A stretch of 64,000 bases of DNA from an uncultured Chloroflexia bacterium (GTDB taxonomy: Bacteria; Chloroflexota; Dehalococcoidia; UBA2979), in NCBI GenBank assembly GCA_963728205.1, contig CAVSIV010000002.1:128001-192000 (forward strand), read 5' to 3'. The position numbers were made by a program, and so were the translations under genes. Positions 7,683-32,814 of the stretch are shown here, piece by piece. The notes under the pieces are model-generated. The model saw only the letters and a program-made list of their open reading frames with translations. It did not search any database and was not told the DNA's origin. Every line of letters begins with the position of its first letter. The stretch's first letter is position 1.

Positions 7683-7772
7683 GCCCGCGTGGTCCCTCAC
7701 GCGCGACGTTGCTAGGCTCCGCGTGCGCGCCGCAGCGGGGGCGCCGGACGCGCGCCGCCGGAGGTCCGCTCG

Positions 7773-8980
7773 ATGTCACGCGCCCCGTGGGTGCGCGCGA
7801 GCGCGCTGTCCCTCGCCCTGCTCACCGCGGCGACGCTCGCCACCGCCTGTCACGGCGCGCGCGGCGCGACGCCCGATGCGCCGGCCGACACGCGCGCCAT
7901 CACCGTGGCGGCCGGCAATCCGATCCGCATCGGCATCTCCTCCATCCTGGACGGCAGCCTCCGCGCGCTCGGCATCCCGCTCGCGCGGGCCGCCGAGCTC
8001 GGCGGGCGCGGCGTGACCGTCGACGGCCACCCGCTCGACTTCGAGCGCTCCGACGACGCCTGCACCGCGGACGGCGGCGTGGCCGCCGCCCGCACGCTGA
8101 TCGCGAGCGGCGTCGTCGCCGTGATCGGGCCGGTCTGCTCGGCGTCGGTGCAGGCCGCGCAGCCCATCTACGCGGCCGCCGGCGTTCCCGTGCTGTCGCC
8201 GGCCTCGACCGCGATCGGCGACACGGTGCCCGTAAGCGGCACGGCGTACGCCGGGTTCTTCCGCCTCGCCTACGACGACGCGATCCAGGCGCAGGCGCTT
8301 GCGCGCTTCGCGACCGAGCGCCTGCACGCGAGCACGGCCTACATCGTCGCGTTCGACGATTTGTTCGGCGCGCAGTACCGCGACGCCTTCGCGGCTGCGT
8401 ACGCCGGGCGCGTCGTGGGCGCCGCGTCGTTCCCGGCCGGCGCCACTGCGTTCCCCTCGGCGGTCCGCGGATCCAGGACTCGCATGCGCAGGTGGTGCTG
8501 TTCTTCGGCTACTCCGCCGAGGCCGCCCCGTTCGCCCGCGCGCTTCAGGCCGCCGGGGTGCGCGTCCCGCTGCTCACGCCCGACACCGTGCACGACTCCC
8601 AGTTCCCGGCGCAGGCGGGCAGCGCGGCGGAGGGCGTCTACGTCGCCCTCCCCGACCCCACTCCGTCCGGCGCCGCCTACGAGCGTTTCAGCGCCGCCTA
8701 CGTTGCCGCGTACGGCGCCTCCGCCGCGGCCGCCCCGTTCACCCCGCAGGCGTTCGACGCCACCGCCGTCCTGGCCGACGCGCTGCGACGCGTCGCGCGG
8801 CCCGCCGGCTCCGCCCTCACGATCGACCTCACCGCGCTGCGCGCCGCGGTCGCGCGGACCGATCTCACGGGCGCGTCGGGGCGGGTGCGCTTCGATGCGC
8901 TGGGCGACAACGTCGGAACGGCGACGCCCGTGCGCATCCTCGTGGTGCGGGAAAGCACGTTCGTCGACACGGGGTTCTAG
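7773..8980 (+). CDS. Branched-chain amino acid ABC transporter substrate-binding lipoprotein (LivJ/K family); frameshift near 8468
   Basis: Lipobox LATAC, DDAC, VIGPVCS and FFRLAYDDAIQ in the 7773 frame. The C-terminal half (VVLFFGY...GASGRVRFDALGD) is in the 7709-8980 frame. Confidence 0.8.
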
Positions 8981-9077
8981 CGTGGACGAGGTTGCGGGGC
9001 GCCTGCTGCGCGAATGATCTACCCTGAACGAACGGGGACGGCGGCGAGCAGAAGCGTCCCCTGGGAACGAGGGCACC

Positions 9078-9698
9078 ATGCCGAACGACACCGAGCGCAC
9101 CGACGGAGCCACGCCCGAGATCCGCTTCACGGACGACGCGGCGGAGAAGCTTGCCGAGGTGATCGGGAACCACCCGAATCCGGTCGCCGGCCTGCGGCTC
9201 CAGATCCTCGGCCGTGCCGAGGGCCAGTTCCAGCACGTCCTCAGCCTCGTCGAGGACGGCGCGCAGATCGAAGACGACATCGTCGTCGAGACCGACGACG
9301 GTATCCGTGTCTTCGTCGAGCGCATGAACGCGAAGTACCTCGACGGCGTAGAGATCAACTACGCCGACAAGGGGCCGGGTCGGACCGGCCTCGAGTTCTC
9401 GAACCCCAACCCGCTCTGGATGGACGAGCGCGAAGAGCTGGTTCAGCGCATCTTCGACGAGCAGGTCAACCCCGCGATTGCCGCACACGGCGGCATCGTG
9501 AACCTGCTCGCGGTCGACGGCGACACCGCCTACGTCCAGTTTGGCGGCGGCTGCCAGGGCTGCGGCATGGTCAACGTCACGCTCCAGCAGGGCGTCGAGG
9601 TGGCCGTCAAGGAGCTGGTGCCGAGCATCGAGCACATCGTCGACGCCACGGACCACCAGTCGGGCACGAACCCCTACTACCAGCCCGCGAAGAAGTGA
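9078..9698 (+). CDS. nfuA: Fe-S biogenesis protein NfuA (degenerate A-type domain + NifU C-terminal domain)
   Basis: GLEFSNPN, VNPAIAAHGG, FGGGCQGCGM and DATDHQSGTNPYY. Confidence 0.92.
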   Translation: MPNDTERTDGATPEIRFTDDAAEKLAEVIGNHPNPVAGLRLQILGRAEGQFQHVLSLVEDGAQIEDDIVVETDDGIRVFVERMNAKYLDGVEINYADKGPGRTGLEFSNPNPLWMDEREELVQRIFDEQVNPAIAAHGGIVNLLAVDGDTAYVQFGGGCQGCGMVNVTLQQGVEVAVKELVPSIEHIVDATDHQSGTNPYYQPAKK

Positions 9699-11167
9699 TG
9701 CCGCCGGGCATGCCCGGCCGCGCGCCAGGCGCGCCGCTCCGCGTCCTGCTCGTCTCCACCTACGAGATGGGCCACCAGCCACTGGGCCTCGCGGCCCCGG
9801 CCGCCGCGCTGCGCGGAGCCGGCCACGACGTCCGGACCCTGGATCTCGCCGTCGAGTCCCCGGAGCTCGAGCGCTTCGACGACGTCGACCTCGTCGCGAT
9901 CTCAATCCCGATGCACACGGCGGCGCGGCTCGGGATCGACCTCGCCGGCCGCCTGCGCCGCCTGCGGCCGGCGCTGCGCATCGCGTTCTACGGCCTCTAC
10001 GCGACGCCGCTCGCCGACCGCCTCGCGCGCGACGGCCTCGCCGACGCCGTGATCGGCGGCGAGTACGAGCCCGGACTCCTCGCGCTCGCCGCGCGCCTCG
10101 CCGGCGCGCCGGCCGACCCGCTCGCGCTCGCGGGCGTCGGCCCGCAGCCCGCGTTCGCGCGGCAGGCGTACCCCGTCCCGGATCGCACGGGATTGCCGCC
10201 GCTCGACGCCTACGCACGCCTCCAGCTCGGCGACGAGCAGCGGCTCGCGGGCTACGTCGAGACGACCCGCGGCTGCGCCCACCACTGCACGCACTGCCCG
10301 CTGACGCCCGTCTACGGTGGGCGCCTGCGCGTCGTGCAGGCCGAGACGGTGCTCGCGGACATCGATCAGCTCGTCGCGGCCGGCGCGCGCCACATCACCT
10401 TCGGCGACCCTGACTTCTTTAACGCCCTGCCCCATGCGCGCGCCGTCGTCGACGCCATGCGCGTCCGCCACCCGGACCTCACGTTCGACGCGACCATCAA
10501 GGTCGAGCACCTGCTCGAGCACGCCGACGCCCTCGCCTGGCTGCGCGGGCGGGGCTGTCTCTTCGTCACCTCCGCGTTCGAGTCGACGAACGACGCCACG
10601 CTTCGCCTGCTCGACAAGGGCCACACGCGCGACGACATGGATCGCGCGGTGGCGGCGGCCGAGGCCGCCGGGCTGCCCGTGCGGCCGACGTGGGTGGCGT
10701 TCACGCCGTGGACGGCACCGGCGGACCTCCTGGACATGCTCGCGTTCATCGAGTCGCGCGGGCTCGTCGAGCACGTGCAGCCGGTGCAGTACGGCATCCG
10801 GCTGCTGCTGCCGCCCGGCTCGCCGCTCGTCGACCGGCTGCGCGACGAGGGCCGGCTCGGCCCGTTCGACGACGACGCCCTCACCTATACGTGGGCGAGC
10901 GCCGACCCGCGCATGGACGCGCTGCAGCGCGAGCTGGCCGGGATCGTGGAGTCGGCGGCGTGCGCGAGCTGCGACGCGGAGCCCGCCGTGGAGACGTTCC
11001 GCCGCGTGAAGCAGGCGACCGTCGCGGCGCTCGCGGGCGACGCGGCGCCGGTGGCGGTAGCCGCACAGCCCCGGCGGGTGGTGCCGGGGCTGACCGAGTC
11101 GTGGTTCTGCTGAGCGGAGCCGACGGGGGCGCAGTTGGCGCCCCTCGACCGCGCGCTCGGGCTGTGA
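9698..11167 (+). CDS. CUAEP-tail radical SAM selenoprotein with an N-terminal B12-binding-like domain; Sec at UGA 11111-11113
   Basis: ATG overlaps the nfuA stop (TGATG). N-terminus LLVSTYEMGHQPLGLA; TRGCAHHCTHC (CxxxCxxC, 10274-10297). C-terminus LTESWFC-U-AEPTGAQLAPLDRALGL, with the next stop at 11165-11167. Confidence 0.9.
11121..11147 (+). promoter_or_regulatory. Putative bacterial SECIS element
   Basis: GGGGCGC(11126-32)-AGUUG-GCGCCCC(11138-44) hairpin extended by CGA/TCG. The loop GU lies about 20 nt after the UGA. Confidence 0.65.
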
Positions 11168-11183
11168 CCCCGGCCGCCTCGCG

Positions 11184-11579
11184 CTAGACGACCGTCACCG
11201 GGATCCGCTGGGTCTCCTCCTGGAGTTCCTCGGCGACGCTTCCGTCGATCAGGTCGCGGAACGCGCTGTGCTCATGCGACGCGATCACGATGCGATCGAC
11301 GTGCTCGTCGCGCGCGACCTCGAGGATCCCGCGCACCGGGTCGCCCGCGAGCCGCACCTCCTCCTGGACGTGCAGACCCGGGTCGAGGCGCTCACGGACC
11401 TTCCGCAGCCGCTTCTCGAGCACCGAGTGCGTCTCCTTCGCGTGCTGTGACACCTCGGGCAGTTCGCCCACGCTGACGAGGACGAGCTCGAAATCGCGCT
11501 CGCCGCGGCCCAATTCGAGGGCCTTCGGCAGCGCGTGCTCGGAAAACTCCGTCTCGTCGATCGGAACGAGGATCTTCAC
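11184..11579 (-). CDS. Universal stress protein (UspA family)
   Basis: KILVPID.TEFSEHAL, GDP..GIL..A....VDRIVIASH and GSVAE...IPVTVV. GTG start with SD GGAGGGAG. Confidence 0.88.
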   Translation of the reverse strand: MKILVPIDETEFSEHALPKALELGRGERDFELVLVSVGELPEVSQHAKETHSVLEKRLRKVRERLDPGLHVQEEVRLAGDPVRGILEVARDEHVDRIVIASHEHSAFRDLIDGSVAEELQEETQRIPVTVV

Positions 11580-11758
11580 CGCGTACTCCCTCCAGGGGGG
11601 CGTGGATGGCCCTCCTTCGAGTCTACGAGGGCCGCGCGACCATCCCGGCGCAACGGTCGCCGTCCGTCGACAGCGGGCGCACCAACTCAGCGGCGCCGGA
11701 GAGGGCGCCGATCTGGTGGGCGGCGCGAGCCGCCCCCTCCCTTTCCCCGCCTCTGCCG

Positions 11759-12994
11759 TCAGTCGATGTCGAACGTCAGACGGCCGTGCGCCGCGCGCAG
11801 CGCCGCTTCGACCGCTTCCGGCGTCTCCCCGCGGGCGAAGATGAACCCCAGGTACTCGCTGCCCTCGGGCAGCGGCACGACCTCGCTGCCGGGGTGAATC
11901 GAAATCGTGACCGATTCGATCAGCGGCACGCGCTCCGCCTCCGCGATGCCATGCACGGCGCGCAGCGTGCCTCCCCGCGGGATCGGGATCATCATCACAC
12001 CGGCTGCCGCCGACTGCCGCTCGTAGGACGGCACCTCTGCGCCGATCGCGTGGCGCAGGAGCAACTCCTCGAGCGACATGCCCGTGCCGAAGCTCAGCGT
12101 CCGCGAGCACAGGCCACCGATCGACCGCGCCGCGATGTCGACCGGGTAGACGCCGTCGTCGTTGATCCGCAGCTCCGCGTGCACCGGCCCGTCGAAGAGC
12201 GCCAGCGCGGCACACGCCTGCTCGGTGGCCGCGATCGCCGCCTTCTGCCGTGCCTCGGGCAGCCGCGACGGCGTCACGTAGATCGTCTCTTCGAAGTACG
12301 GGCCCTCCAGCGGGTCGGGCTTGTCGAAGACCGCGAGCACCCGCAGCCTTCCATGATCGAGCAGCCCCTCCAGCGAGACCTCGATGCCGGGGATGTAGCC
12401 CTCCACGAGCAGGCGGTCCACGAGCTCGTGGCCGCACTCGTCGCGCGCGTCGGGTGACTCGAGAATGCGTCGCACGCGCCCGAAAGCCGCGACGAATGCG
12501 TCGGCGTCGTCGGCGCGGATCACGCCCTTGCTCGCGGAAAGCGCGAGCGGCTTCAGCACGACGGGGTACGTCAGGTCCGCGGCGGCCGCGCGGGGATCGT
12601 CGAGCAGCGACACCGCGCGGAACGCGGGCGACGCGATGCCGGCGGCGGCCAGCCGCTCGCGCAGCAGCAGCTTGTTCCGCGTCGCCTCCACGGCCGCGAC
12701 GGGGTTGTAGGGCAGCTCGAGCCGGCGCGCCGCGCGCGCTGCCACCAGCGCACCGCCGTCATCCACCGCCACGATCGTGTCGAGCGGGTGCCGCCCCGCG
12801 AACGCCTCGATCTCGCCGGCGCCGATGTCGGGCTCGGTGAAGTTCAGCCCGAGCGTCCGCCCCTCGGACAGCGATTCCAGCGGACTGCTCGCGTCGGAGC
12901 CGACGACCACCTCGACGCCGAGCTTCGCCGCAGCCTCCATGAAGTCGGGCGCGCGGTAGGAGCGGGTGGGGATCAGGAGCATCACTCGCGGCAC
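11759..12994 (-). CDS. ATP-grasp domain protein (amino-acid-ligase-like)
   Basis: RNKLLLR, YPVVLKPLALSASKGVIR, LVEGYIPGIEVSLE, DKPDPLEGPYFEE, HAELR and DIAARSIGG. Confidence 0.9.
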   Translation of the reverse strand: MPRVMLLIPTRSYRAPDFMEAAAKLGVEVVVGSDASSPLESLSEGRTLGLNFTEPDIGAGEIEAFAGRHPLDTIVAVDDGGALVAARAARRLELPYNPVAAVEATRNKLLLRERLAAAGIASPAFRAVSLLDDPRAAAADLTYPVVLKPLALSASKGVIRADDADAFVAAFGRVRRILESPDARDECGHELVDRLLVEGYIPGIEVSLEGLLDHGRLRVLAVFDKPDPLEGPYFEETIYVTPSRLPEARQKAAIAATEQACAALALFDGPVHAELRINDDGVYPVDIAARSIGGLCSRTLSFGTGMSLEELLLRHAIGAEVPSYERQSAAAGVMMIPIPRGGTLRAVHGIAEAERVPLIESVTISIHPGSEVVPLPEGSEYLGFIFARGETPEAVEAALRAAHGRLTFDID

Positions 12995-13108
12995 AGCGCA
13001 CCTCCCGGTCGGGTTCGGGGCGTGAACGCAAAGCAGCCGGCCCGGGGGCCGGCTGCGATCGTATGCGCATCCGCGCGCCGGCCGCCTCGCGGCCGGCGCA
13101 AAGCGTGG

Positions 13109-13444
13109 CTAGTGGCCGCCGCAGCCGCAGCTGCCGCCGCCGAGCGCCGCCGCGTTCGGCGCCTCGATGGCGAAGCCGGACTGCATCACGTCGTCCACGT
13201 AGTCGATCGACGCGCCCTCGAGCACCGGCGCGGACGCGGAGTCGACGATGAAGGTCAGCGTGCCGACCCGGATCACGGAGTCCTGGTCCGACGCGCTGTC
13301 GAGGCCCATGCCGAACTGCGGCCCGCTGCACGCGCACCCGCCCGACTGGGCGAAGATGCGAATCGCGTGGTCCGGGGTCTCCTCGCGGTCGGCAAGGAGC
13401 GCGCTCAGGCGCTGCTGGGCCAGGTCGGTCACGGTCAGGTTCAT
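13109..13444 (-). CDS. A-type Fe-S carrier (IscA/SufA/ErpA, HesB family)
   Basis: GGCACSG, IDYVDD...GF.I.APN and a C-terminal SCGCG. Confidence 0.9.
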   Translation of the reverse strand: MNLTVTDLAQQRLSALLADREETPDHAIRIFAQSGGCACSGPQFGMGLDSASDQDSVIRVGTLTFIVDSASAPVLEGASIDYVDDVMQSGFAIEAPNAAALGGGSCGCGGH

Positions 13445-27024: not shown

Positions 27025-27212
27025 CCTCGTTCGGCGCTCACGCGAGCGCCCCCGCACATTTACATCTGGATAGCAGACAGAAACCAAAACAGGATCCCCG
27101 TTAGCCGCGGGGGCCCGGGATACGGGCGTGCCTTCGGGCACGTGCGGATCATGGGTGCCTCGGCGGTGATTCCGACGAACCAAGCACCCGCTTCGGCGGA
27201 TGTGAGATTTCG

Positions 27213-28697
<1,485 letters not shown>

Positions 28698-28947
28698 CTA
28701 GGGAGTTGCACCGTCCGGACTCACATCGAAGCAACGGTGTTGCCTCGATGCCGGCGAAGCTCCTAGTCGATCGGCCCGTCGGCCTTGCGCGAGGGATGTT
28801 CGTCCTCCGCCGGCCGGGTCGTCAGCATCGAACCTCGCTGGGCCTGGCGAGGGCTTCTGTCTGCTATCCAGCTGTCGATGTGCGCCCGCTTCGGGGACGC
28901 GCCCGCTCTCACGGCGACGCGGAGGGTCCGGGGTGCTGTGCACCGGA

Positions 28948-29024
28948 GGGCCATTAGCTCAGCCGGTTAGAGCGCAGTCCTGATAAGACTGAGGTCCCTG
29001 GTTCGAGTCCAGGATGGCCCACCA
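28948..29024 (+). tRNA. tRNA-Ile(GAT)
   Basis: Cloverleaf in the ITS with anticodon arm CAGTC-CTGATAA-GACTG and a CCA end. Confidence 0.97.
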
Positions 29025-29070
29025 CCGCACGGTGTCGCGGGGTCGTCCGAATTGGACGTCGAGGCTCCAG

Positions 29071-29146
29071 GGGGCCGTAGCTCAGCTGGGAGAGCGCCGC
29101 CTTTGCAAGGCGGAGGTCGGGGGTTCGATCCCCCCCGGCTCCACCA
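29071..29146 (+). tRNA. tRNA-Ala(TGC)
   Basis: GGGGCCGTAGCTCAGCTGGGAGAGCG, anticodon loop TTTGCAA, G3-U70 pair and CCA. Confidence 0.97.
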
Positions 29147-29398
29147 GGTCACCGAGCGCACGACAGGCACCGATGCGAACCGCCCCGGCGGCGCGACCGC
29201 TTCGAGCATGGCTCGAGGTCGCGCGGCGCGGGGCGGCGTATTGACGCCGGCAGCATCGCGGGCCAGCGGCCCGCGGCGGCACGTTTAGAACAGAATACTG
29301 CTCAAGAATTTCCTGAACTGCGAGTAATCGTCGAGTGTCGGCGCAGCGTGTTCGCACGTCGCGCCGATCGCGAAGATCGCGGAGTGTGCTTGACGGAG

Positions 29399-32343
<2,945 letters not shown>

Positions 32344-32470
32344 TCCTTCAAGCATCCCCGTGATCTCTGGCGATGCTCGCAGTTCATGAGCGGTATTCTG
32401 TACGGGGCGAGCGACTGCGCTCGTCCCGCCGAAGAGCGCGGTCCACGTGTGCTACGCTGGATCGCAACGG

Positions 32471-32545
<75 letters not shown>

Positions 32546-32554
32546 GCGAACAAC

Positions 32555-32587
32555 AGGGCGGGGCCATTGGGCTCCGCCCTTTTTTTG
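32555..32587 (+). terminator. Intrinsic terminator between tRNA-fMet and 5S
   Basis: AGGGCGGGGCC-ATTG-GGCTCCGCCCT followed by a T-run. Confidence 0.85.
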
Positions 32588-32695
32588 TCTTCTGGTGTCG
32601 CACGTTCCCCTGCACTGGGAGGCGGGACCAGGAAAATGGGCACTTCGCCGACGATCGCAGTTGCTCATACGCCGGCGATCGCTGCATACTGTCGT

Positions 32696-32814
32696 TCCTG
32701 GTGGTTAGAGCGCGGCGGACCCACCCGTTCCCATTCCGAACACGGAAGTGAAACGTCGTAGCGCTGACGATACTCCCCGGGCAACTGGGTGTGGAAAATA
32801 GGCCACCGCCAGGA
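32696..32814 (+). rRNA. rrf: 5S rRNA
   Basis: TCCTGGTGG...CCCATTCCGAACACGGAAGTGAAAC...CCGCCAGGA, with paired ends. Confidence 0.96.

Follow-up and report, generated by a model that had tools for sequence, protein, structure and literature searches.

A selenocysteine-tailed relative of ArsL belongs to a conserved three-gene module with an ATP-grasp ligase and an interchangeable iron donor

The radical S-adenosylmethionine (SAM) enzyme ArsL splits SAM into methylthioadenosine and an aminocarboxypropyl radical, which is passed to arsenite on a C-terminal CCxxC motif; the tail-less enzyme still cleaves SAM and yields only 2-aminobutyrate (10.1101/2024.02.01.577332). According to the accessible part of a further report, the reaction involves an Fe-C bonded intermediate and SAM is bound in the canonical mode (10.64898/2026.04.29.721666). 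Because ArsL binds SAM canonically in that account, no sequence signature predicts the mode of cleavage. Another radical SAM family, named after its CUAEP or CCAEP tail, is called uncharacterised in the available text of 10.1101/2022.07.06.499078, which describes CU motifs as rare and otherwise found mostly in proteins of organometallic or mercury chemistry. In this study, we analysed a member of this family encoded in a 64,000-nucleotide stretch of DNA, hereafter the window, from an uncultured Chloroflexia bacterium (GTDB lineage Dehalococcoidia, UBA2979; contig CAVSIV010000002.1 of assembly GCA_963728205.1, positions 128,001 to 192,000, forward strand). Its gene lies at window positions 9078-13444 together with genes for an NfuA-like iron-sulfur (Fe-S) carrier, a universal stress protein (Usp), an ATP-grasp protein of the L-amino-acid-ligase (Lal) type and an A-type carrier (IscA). 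We found that the conserved unit consists of three genes, which encode the CUAEP radical SAM enzyme, the ligase and a small iron or Fe-S donor.

The partners of the radical SAM enzyme also have characterised relatives. NfuA is a cluster donor or repair factor for the radical SAM clients LipA and MiaB in Escherichia coli, and YggX protects Fe-S clusters. The ATP-dependent amide-forming step of the diphthamide pathway is carried out by Dph6, which is not an ATP-grasp enzyme, and Dph3 of the same pathway is a zinc-ribbon protein. To our knowledge, none of the known L-amino acid ligases is tied to a radical SAM enzyme or to an Fe-S carrier. One of them, BL00235, produces Met-Gly and Met-Met with Met as the first substrate, according to the accessible text of PMC6920838. 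Dph3 is described in the available part of PMC8251694 as giving the iron atom that restores the Dph1-Dph2 cluster in air, and Dph2 is placed outside the radical SAM superfamily in the accessible part of 10.64898/2026.04.29.721666. The literature that we searched held no paper joining an ATP-grasp enzyme with NfuA, nothing relevant on a selenocysteine radical SAM enzyme with 3-amino-3-carboxypropyl chemistry, and no function or genetic context for the CUAEP family; the supplements of 10.1101/2024.02.01.577332 were not covered.

Eighty homologous loci from public genomes, many of them short, were searched by tblastn with the proteins of the window. The ATP-grasp ligase was found in 45 of them, Nfu in 42, IscA in four, RecQ in one and Usp in none. 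In 51/80 loci the ligase, Nfu or both lie near the radical SAM gene, and the 29 loci with neither include many short contigs. We therefore give particular attention to the 46 informative loci, defined by at least 3 kb on each side of the radical SAM gene. Here, the ligase occurs in 34 (31 within 2 kb), Nfu in 32, both in 30 and neither in ten. In addition, open reading frames (ORFs) of at least 70 residues within 7 kb of the radical SAM gene were clustered de novo, and the 30 largest clusters, each present in at least four of the 80 loci, were inspected. This clustering added a YggX-type Fe(II)-trafficking protein (13 loci), a DUF169 protein (15 loci), a DsrE-like protein (7 loci) and an Atg22-like major facilitator superfamily transporter (7 loci). 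Nfu or YggX accompanies the radical SAM gene in 38 of the informative loci; at least one of ligase, Nfu, YggX and DUF169 is present in 42, and none of the four in the remaining four. When at least one partner gene is present, the genes appear in 16 different orders and orientations. Going by their titles, the 80 loci belong to at least eight phyla: Chloroflexota, Acidobacteriota, Actinomycetota, Gemmatimonadota-type, Planctomycetota, Rokubacteria/Methylomirabilota, Latescibacterota and Gammaproteobacteria.

The genes of the module are closely spaced, with gaps of mostly 36-125 nt. No conserved short gene was found among the neighbour clusters, which did not include ORFs under 70 residues. A cluster for a ribosomally synthesised and post-translationally modified peptide (RiPP) was rejected, as no precursor was seen and there is no room for one. 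Of note, the seven loci with the DsrE-like gene (L019, L023, L027, L038, L041, L049 and L064) are related, actinobacterial and all of the Cys (CCAEP) type; its distance to the radical SAM gene is 2 kb in L064 and 104 nt in the other six.

The two enzymes also occur together at the level of whole genomes. In a first sample of 201 genomes from the phylum of the window, the radical SAM gene was found in 42 genomes and the ligase in 51 (42-57% identity), with both in 40 and neither in 148. A second sample of 151 genomes from another phylum, centred on an acidobacterial locus, gave 23 genomes with the radical SAM gene, 27 with the ligase, 22 with both and 123 with neither. Across the two samples, 62/65 radical SAM-positive genomes also carry the ligase. 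In several families the two genes are on separate contigs or hundreds of kb apart and still co-occur, and three of five genomes with a ligase-free radical SAM locus have a ligase orthologue elsewhere. Because related genomes are not independent, we draw no claim from Fisher values and give counts only. We consider it very probable that the three genes form one functional unit, and their association points to an undescribed pathway.

Gene calls in the window were made from family scans (Pfam, and NF and TIGR profiles with curated cut-offs) together with the ORF list. An earlier note, made from the sequence of this DNA, had described five genes in two convergent arms and a TGATG junction coupling nfuA to the radical SAM gene. 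All five are present on the strands that it gave, and the junction is found where the two reading frames overlap. The features are as follows.

9078..9698, plus strand: NfuA-like Fe-S carrier gene, 206 residues, with the Pfam domains Fe-S_biosyn and NifU.
9696..9700, plus strand: TGATG overlap of the nfuA stop codon (9696-9698) and the radical SAM ATG (9698-9700), read directly from the sequence.
9698..11167, plus strand: CUAEP-tail radical SAM selenoprotein gene, NF040546 at 585.2 bits; the second TGA is the stop (11165-11167).
11111..11113, plus strand: in-frame TGA for selenocysteine, residue 472 counted from the ATG, indicated by a TGA/Cys swap in homologues and a downstream hairpin.
11126..11144, plus strand: hairpin resembling a selenocysteine insertion sequence (SECIS), stem 11126-11132 with 11138-11144, loop AGUUG, 7/7 pairs Watson-Crick.
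11184..11579, minus strand: Usp gene (Pfam Usp, E 4.4e-17), whose GTG start is preceded by GGAGG.
11759..12994, minus strand: L-amino-acid-ligase-type ATP-grasp gene, 411 residues, with a GTG start behind GGGAGG and the domains ATPgrasp_N, ATP-grasp_4 and LAL_C2.
13109..13444, minus strand: A-type carrier (IscA/HesB) gene, TIGR00049 at 75.5 bits against a cut-off of 58.8 bits.

A GTG at 9695 is an alternative start for the radical SAM gene. The two arms converge, with 16 bases between the stop of the radical SAM gene and the stop of usp, and a RecQ gene and an HDOD gene come after the IscA gene.

The radical SAM protein passes the CUAEP/CCAEP-tail model NF040546, with 585.2 bits against a cut-off of 500 (578.9 bits in the genome scan), and matches to this family occur in at least 579 stretches of a one-genome-per-species collection. 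The second-best family is ArsL (NF040542, 285.8 bits, E 7e-85, model positions 1-414 of 423), and the third scores 62.5 bits. Like ArsL, with which it shares full-length homology, the protein has a B12-binding-like N-domain, a CX3CX2C core and a Cys-rich tail motif at the C-terminus, here a Cys-selenocysteine (Cys-Sec) pair. Pfam recognises the B12-binding domain at 42.6 bits (cut-off 32.1) and the Radical_SAM domain at 46.4 bits (cut-off 29.5). In an alignment of 29 sequences, C194, C198, C201 and C472 are invariant. An AlphaFold2 model (mean predicted local distance difference test, pLDDT, 87.9) has AprD4, OxsB, TsrM, MgmA, TokK, CysS and MiaB as its closest solved folds; no ArsL structure is present among the sequence matches or among the fold matches listed. 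Unlike ArsL, the protein has about 50 extra residues before the tail, belongs to a family that is predominantly of the selenoprotein type (62/80 loci), and has a ligase and an iron donor as its genetic partners in place of ArsM and ArsQ. Membership of the ArsL family itself was rejected (285.8 against 450 bits, no RCCLKC tail and no ars context among the neighbour clusters inspected).

The in-frame TGA of the radical SAM gene is a genuine selenocysteine codon. The tail reads ...SWFC-TGA-AEPTGAQLAPLDRALGL, which with TGA as U gives ...SWFC-U-AEPT... The tail is conserved in 80/80 loci, with TGA in 62, Cys in 17 and the U-C order in one, and AEPT..Q continues in frame. Across the 63 Sec-type sequences, the TGA is followed after 15 nt by a 7-bp stem whose loop contains AGUU, and six of the seven pairs change on both sides. 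Stem cells are paired in 82.1% against 68.7% after shuffling, and 0/500 shuffles reach the observed pairing or covariation. Likewise, the covariation score is 0.44, and displacing the 3' partner columns by 1 to 3 positions lowers it to 0.10-0.22. The hairpin is not present in the 17 Cys-type loci. Folding energy past the TGA is uninformative alone, with a z-score of -0.84 and similar mean energies in Sec-type and Cys-type loci; the covariation count alone decided in favour of the hairpin. The genome carries selA and a Sec-containing selD. No tRNA-Sec lies within the window, and selB and tRNA-Sec were not searched genome-wide.

In the first sample, selD is found in 145/201 genomes and in 37/42 radical SAM-positive genomes. 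It is missing from four Cys-type genomes that have the module and present in 5/5 other Cys-type genomes. A pathway to a seleno-metabolite is not indicated, because selD is so widespread in the phylum that its presence is not informative and four Cys-type module genomes are without it.

Three minor observations concern the radical SAM gene and its decoding. One Chloroflexi locus (L080:2654-2700) has the swapped tail W-Y-U-C-A-E-P in place of C-U-A-E-P. In locus L115 (G202:C1:3809143-3811176), a second radical SAM copy is N-terminally truncated (290 bits, model positions 218-467), keeps the TGA and lies directly upstream of a ligase and YggX; the full copy is 2 Mb off, beside DUF169. Finally, the selA match in the genome of the window (G000:C2:332097-333424) falls into two overlapping pieces that cover model positions 117-454 and 1-128. 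This split may be a second frameshift or indel: if real, it bears on selenocysteine decoding, and if an artefact, on indel errors in the assembly.

The ATP-grasp protein has the three Pfam domains ATPgrasp_N, ATP-grasp_4 and LAL_C2, the same set as the L-amino acid ligases BL00235, BacD, DdaF, RizA and TabS. Its best solved relative is 3VOT, the structure of BL00235 (E 7.6e-38, residues 13-401), followed by BacD (4e-15). Unlike the known L-amino acid ligases, it reaches the cut-off of no curated ligase family, and a search of the Protein Atlas returned only unnamed ATP-grasp/Lal clusters. Orthologues at the homologous loci are 42-80% identical. The ligase has one invariant Cys only and hence is not itself an Fe-S client. 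Of note, at L093:6132-9212 (genome G028) a pyridoxal 5'-phosphate (PLP) enzyme of Cys/Met metabolism (359.6 bits) shares an operon with a short Nfu and the ligase, the genes being spaced by 3 nt, and this genome has no radical SAM match at E <= 1e-60. As a regular neighbour, the PLP enzyme was rejected (2 of about 110 loci). Some longer proteins also contain the ligase (P0123-P0130). They include sulfotransferase fusions with four and three member sequences (P0124 and P0126) and singleton fusions with RicT-like plus sulfite reductase (P0123), FIST (P0128) and DUF429 domains. Three further singletons fuse radical SAM and ligase sequences; their domains are truncated, and they may be frame artefacts. 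We did not count the ligase fusions as evidence, since they are inconsistent and their extra domains occur in none of the studied loci.

In the protein encoded by the first gene of the window module, an A-type N-domain free of Cys is joined through an NPNP linker to an Nfu domain that has the motif GGCQGC, and the tail is NPYYQPAKK. Pfam places Fe-S_biosyn at residues 14-112 and NifU at residues 122-187. Like E. coli NfuA, it is a two-domain protein in which a Cys-free N-domain precedes a CxxC Nfu domain; C159, C162 and K205 are invariant in the alignment, whose N-domain is without Cys. Unlike E. coli NfuA, it scores below the equivalog cut-offs (TIGR03341, 105.2 bits against 269; NF008392, 81.3 bits against 268), carries the extra ...PAKK tail and has a genomic tie to one client and one ligase. 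It is the sole Nfu-domain gene found in this 89%-complete genome. It is the general Nfu of the organism placed beside a client, and not an extra dedicated copy.

The iron donor is interchangeable: the window encodes an NfuA-like protein, and other lineages have an Fe(II) protein of the YggX type instead. In the first sample, the NfuA-like protein occurs in 28/201 genomes, 24 of them ligase-positive, and high-scoring full-length YggX in 29/201, 28 of them radical SAM-positive. The 40 Chloroflexota-like genomes with both enzymes divide cleanly: 13 have the NfuA-like protein, and in 27 full-length YggX takes its place, with no genome having both and none having neither. YggX adjoins the radical SAM gene or the ligase even where those two are unlinked, and it is ligase-adjacent in three such loci (L109, L112 and L113).

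The C-termini of the donors are also distinctive. All 55 Nfu proteins at module or ligase loci have a Lys tail, mostly NPYYxP[AS]KK or ...SK. Two full-length NfuA-like proteins from ligase-free genomes of one genus (L122 and L123) end in ...NPYYQHGH and ...NPYYHQGH, and ligase-positive genomes of the same family retain the ...AKK ending. The YggX proteins of the module end in Pro/Gly/Lys-rich tails, which may be a trait of the YggX family. Full-length YggX proteins would then end in Lys-rich tails as a rule, as that of E. coli does. YggX tails were rejected as a control for a role of the Lys tail, since the YggX-like proteins found outside the module are short and form a truncated subfamily. 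As a side observation, Nfu (55 loci) and YggX (24 loci), which are unrelated donor families, share Pro/Lys tails, with YggX ending in ...PPQ[AS]K. or ...APARKK. The tail of the L034 Nfu protein is long, repetitive and rich in both Gly and Cys, and the NfuA-like gene beside the ligase at L091:7386-7991 (genome G128) contains one in-frame TAG.

Usp and IscA are local additions outside the conserved module. All four IscA matches in the 80 loci are the N-domain of NfuA, and the loci have no separate IscA gene. In three genomes of the same genus, the NfuA-radical SAM pair and the ATP-grasp-IscA(-RecQ) group are syntenic with the window, so IscA adjoins ATP-grasp in 3/3; the interval between the convergent genes varies in content and contains no Usp homologue. 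At the family level, G362 and G363 keep the ligase close to the radical SAM gene, and the two are on separate contigs in G359, where NfuA is beside the ligase; IscA is apart from ATP-grasp in all three. Within its own genome, IscA is one of three stand-alone A-type carrier paralogues. The others are at G000:C4:142904-143206 and G000:C6:1837190-1837489, and one of them lies about 12 kb from selD.

These results sort the proposals of the earlier note. It had named as fatal to its idea a lack of linkage or co-occurrence in other genomes. Three genes survive this comparison, with ATP-grasp at 34/46 and Nfu at 32/46 loci and co-occurrence of the enzymes in 40/42 and 22/23 radical SAM-positive genomes, and IscA fails it. 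The picture of two arms each headed by an Fe-S carrier was rejected as a five-gene unit, since IscA stands beside ATP-grasp only within the genus or is the NfuA N-domain (4/80), and Usp, seen in 0/80 loci and in none of the same-genus loci, is not a member. Nor does a dedicated cluster supply hold, given that the NfuA-like gene is the only Nfu found in the genome and that YggX substitutes for it in many lineages. The selenocysteine reading of the CUAEP tail is borne out by the in-frame tail of 80/80 loci, the covarying hairpin and the presence of selA and selD, and we likewise saw no RiPP precursor. A single pathway of the radical SAM and ATP-grasp enzymes agrees with their co-occurrence and is made less secure by the presence of ligase and NfuA in radical SAM-free genomes, to which we return below.

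Our best overall reading, which we hold tentatively and judge slightly more apt to be wrong than right, combines an ArsL-like aminocarboxypropyl transfer to an atom held by the tail, an ATP-grasp ligation and cluster upkeep by NfuA or YggX. In a first step, the radical SAM enzyme would cut the C-gamma-S bond of SAM, as ArsL does, to give a 3-amino-3-carboxypropyl radical and methylthioadenosine. The radical would then be caught by a soft atom (S, Se or a metalloid) on the mobile Cys-Sec pair, which sits where ArsL has its arsenite-binding RCCLKC tail, and a methionine-like 2-amino-4-X-butanoate would result. The ATP-grasp enzyme may next activate a carboxylate as an acyl phosphate and form an amide, giving a dipeptide-like product, as BL00235 does with methionine. 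Finally, NfuA or YggX may re-supply the cluster, or a labile fourth iron, in oxygen-exposed cells, as Dph3 does for Dph1-Dph2, which is the one other enzyme known to use an aminocarboxypropyl radical. Taken by themselves, ArsL-type chemistry in the radical SAM enzyme, suggested by homology, has in our view not quite an even chance, and action of the ligase on the radical SAM product a little less than that. The PLP enzyme-Nfu-ligase operon of L093 fits this reading, as a single case. Cys/Met-family PLP enzymes produce the same 2-amino-4-X-butanoates by a polar route.

Under this reading only, the module would resemble the diphthamide pathway in having an aminocarboxypropyl-radical enzyme, an iron-donating helper and an ATP-dependent amide step. 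Unlike that pathway, it shows no sequence relationship to it, and the target is more likely a small molecule. A more specific and rather improbable version would have this selenoprotein cousin of ArsL forge a C-S or C-Se bond by passing the aminocarboxypropyl radical to a chalcogen on its own Cys-Sec tail. In this widespread pathway, the dedicated ligase would join the methionine-like product into a dipeptide, which would act either as a new low-molecular-weight thiol or selenol or by binding iron clusters as a ligand. Such a ligand would explain why the ligase is always accompanied by NfuA or YggX.

Several findings weigh against the ArsL-like reading. The 285.8 bits of the protein fall below the ArsL cut-off of 450 bits, and the CUAEP tail offers two chalcogens against three in the RCCLKC tail of ArsL. 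The choice between ArsL-type and 5'-deoxyadenosyl chemistry follows homology alone, and no sequence feature is known that decides it. In the clusters common to at least four loci there are no ars, acr3, arsM or arsQ-like genes and no methyltransferases; rarer neighbours were not inspected. In the window, the radical SAM and ligase genes are convergent with usp between them and are therefore not co-transcribed. Radical SAM-positive genomes that lack the ligase are G138 (one contig, 97% complete), G104, where the radical SAM gene is partial and at a contig end, G239 and two others, a Nonomuraea genome and a Pyrinomonadaceae metagenome-assembled genome, in which only a 30%-identical ligase paralogue was found. 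The PLP-enzyme operon is seen at one locus; at one other, a gene of this kind lies at a distance of 4 kb. Conversely, 11/51 and 5/27 ligase-positive genomes of the two samples are without the radical SAM gene. In 11/11 ligase-only loci checked, NfuA directly adjoins the ligase, mostly in divergent orientation, and 5/5 ligase-only genomes searched have no radical SAM homologue at E <= 1e-8. Since ligase and NfuA occur in genomes without a radical SAM homologue, the simple reading of one pathway is insecure.

These ligase-only genomes are better explained if the ligase works on or with the iron donor, a possibility that we regard as somewhat doubtful and still as nearly equal to the ArsL-like reading. 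Bound to NfuA or YggX, the ligase would either attach something to the Lys-ending tail of this donor or make a small ligand of its iron or cluster. The pair would then be an ATP-dependent unit of cluster supply or repair, with the radical SAM enzyme as its most dependent client. In the first sample, no ligase-positive genome lacks both partners. The adjacency of ligase and NfuA in the ligase-only loci (11/11, with 5/5 such genomes radical SAM-free) agrees with this, as does YggX beside the ligase in L109, L112 and L113, where the enzymes are unlinked. The tail pattern, too, is better accounted for, with Lys tails in 55/55 Nfu proteins, an invariant K205 and QHGH or HQGH endings in the NfuA-like proteins of ligase-free genomes.

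Co-folding points weakly in the same direction. With alignments that we supplied, ligase and NfuA reached interaction prediction scores from aligned errors (ipSAE) of 0.57, 0.57 and 0.60, and the best of three controls 0.01; the partner had a pLDDT of 81 or more, the runs agreed in 93% or more of their contacts, and no interface is reported from these models. In calibration, the mark was reached by 58/80 solved complexes and 2/110 mismatched pairs, and at scores up to 0.60 by seven of the 80 solved complexes and both passing mismatches. We take this as weak model support for a pairing of ligase and NfuA. On the other side, we know of no precedent for such an activity and of no Lal-type enzyme that acts on a protein C-terminus or an Fe-S carrier. 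The tail contrast comes from two related genomes, the Lys-rich tails of YggX may be a family trait, and the short YggX-like proteins are no clean control. Moreover, the retention of the ligase in 62/65 radical SAM genomes is left unexplained, unless the client strictly needs a modified donor.

It is also conceivable, and in our judgement unlikely, that the radical SAM enzyme performs conventional 5'-deoxyadenosyl-radical or cobalamin chemistry, such as C-methylation, dehydration or thiolation, on a small molecule or protein, with the tail serving to shuttle redox equivalents or to donate a hydrogen atom. Mammalian thioredoxin reductase has a Gly-Cys-Sec-Gly tail with a comparable role, and it is established chemistry that a vicinal Cys-Sec pair can form a selenenylsulfide. 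The B12-binding match (42.6 against 32.1 bits), the canonical CX3CX2C motif and the closest solved folds (AprD4 to MiaB, as listed above) fit this picture, and so do two chalcogen ligands in the tail instead of the three of ArsL. The class B families, however, score at most 62.5 bits against 285.8 for ArsL, and ArsL, on the accessible account of its SAM binding, shares architecture and canonical binding mode and yet cuts the other C-S bond. In addition, no cobalamin-related gene was found among the neighbour clusters common to at least four loci, and no cobalamin riboswitch was found: the riboswitch scan of the window found only rRNA and tRNA, and that of 14 module loci one unrelated thiamine pyrophosphate element, one tRNA and nothing else. 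Neither AprD4 nor ArsL is known to use cobalamin.

Very unlikely, in our opinion, is a true arsenic or antimony enzyme, that is, an isofunctional variant of ArsL whose organo-metalloid amino acid is made into a peptide by the ligase. The full-length homology to ArsL would be expected of such an enzyme, and CU motifs occur mostly in organometallic or mercury proteins in the available text of 10.1101/2022.07.06.499078. The accessible part of 10.1101/648329 describes a Nitrospina locus with a DUF169 gene near an hgcA-like gene and merR, and DUF169 neighbours the radical SAM gene in 15/80 loci; on DUF169 itself, the literature gave weak context mentions only. Against this stand the ArsL score below cut-off, the different set of tail ligands and the lack of ars, acr3 and arsM-like genes in the clusters common to at least four loci. 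The family is also very widespread (at least 579 stretches) and tied to housekeeping-type iron donors, not to resistance islands. A chance neighbourhood with no functional link, for which the convergent enzymes with usp between them and the single Nfu gene of the genome might speak, has a negligible chance and is already contradicted by linkage and co-occurrence across phyla and by 16 arrangements with at least one partner.

Whichever account holds, this is a cross-phylum, three-part module of undescribed function whose nearest characterised relative, judged by homology, is ArsL. The CUAEP family is a much larger sister family of ArsL, mostly of selenoproteins and without known function, spread over soil, groundwater and marine phyla. 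As far as the literature searched shows, we provide its first defined genetic context, which consists of an obligate-looking partner ligase and an interchangeable iron donor. If true, either of the two foremost readings would be new, one as a radical synthesis of amino acids with a C-heteroatom bond coupled to a ligase, the other as an ATP-grasp enzyme acting on an Fe-S carrier. An annotation label thereby becomes a set of concrete questions: which C-S bond of SAM is cut, what cargo the tail holds, which substrates the ligase joins, and whether NfuA or YggX acts as a helper or is itself a substrate.

Two features of the window outside the module deserve mention. A Peripla_BP_6 gene immediately before it (7709-9017, plus strand) is divided between two reading frames, with model positions 1-184 in the frame starting at 7773 and positions 185-324 in the frame starting at 7709, which indicates a frameshift or an assembly indel near 8470. 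Further downstream lies an rRNA operon (27212-32814, plus strand) whose 16S-23S spacer contains tRNA-Ile and tRNA-Ala; a tRNA-Met (CAT) is located between 23S and 5S, and the GC content falls to 0.58-0.65 across the operon.

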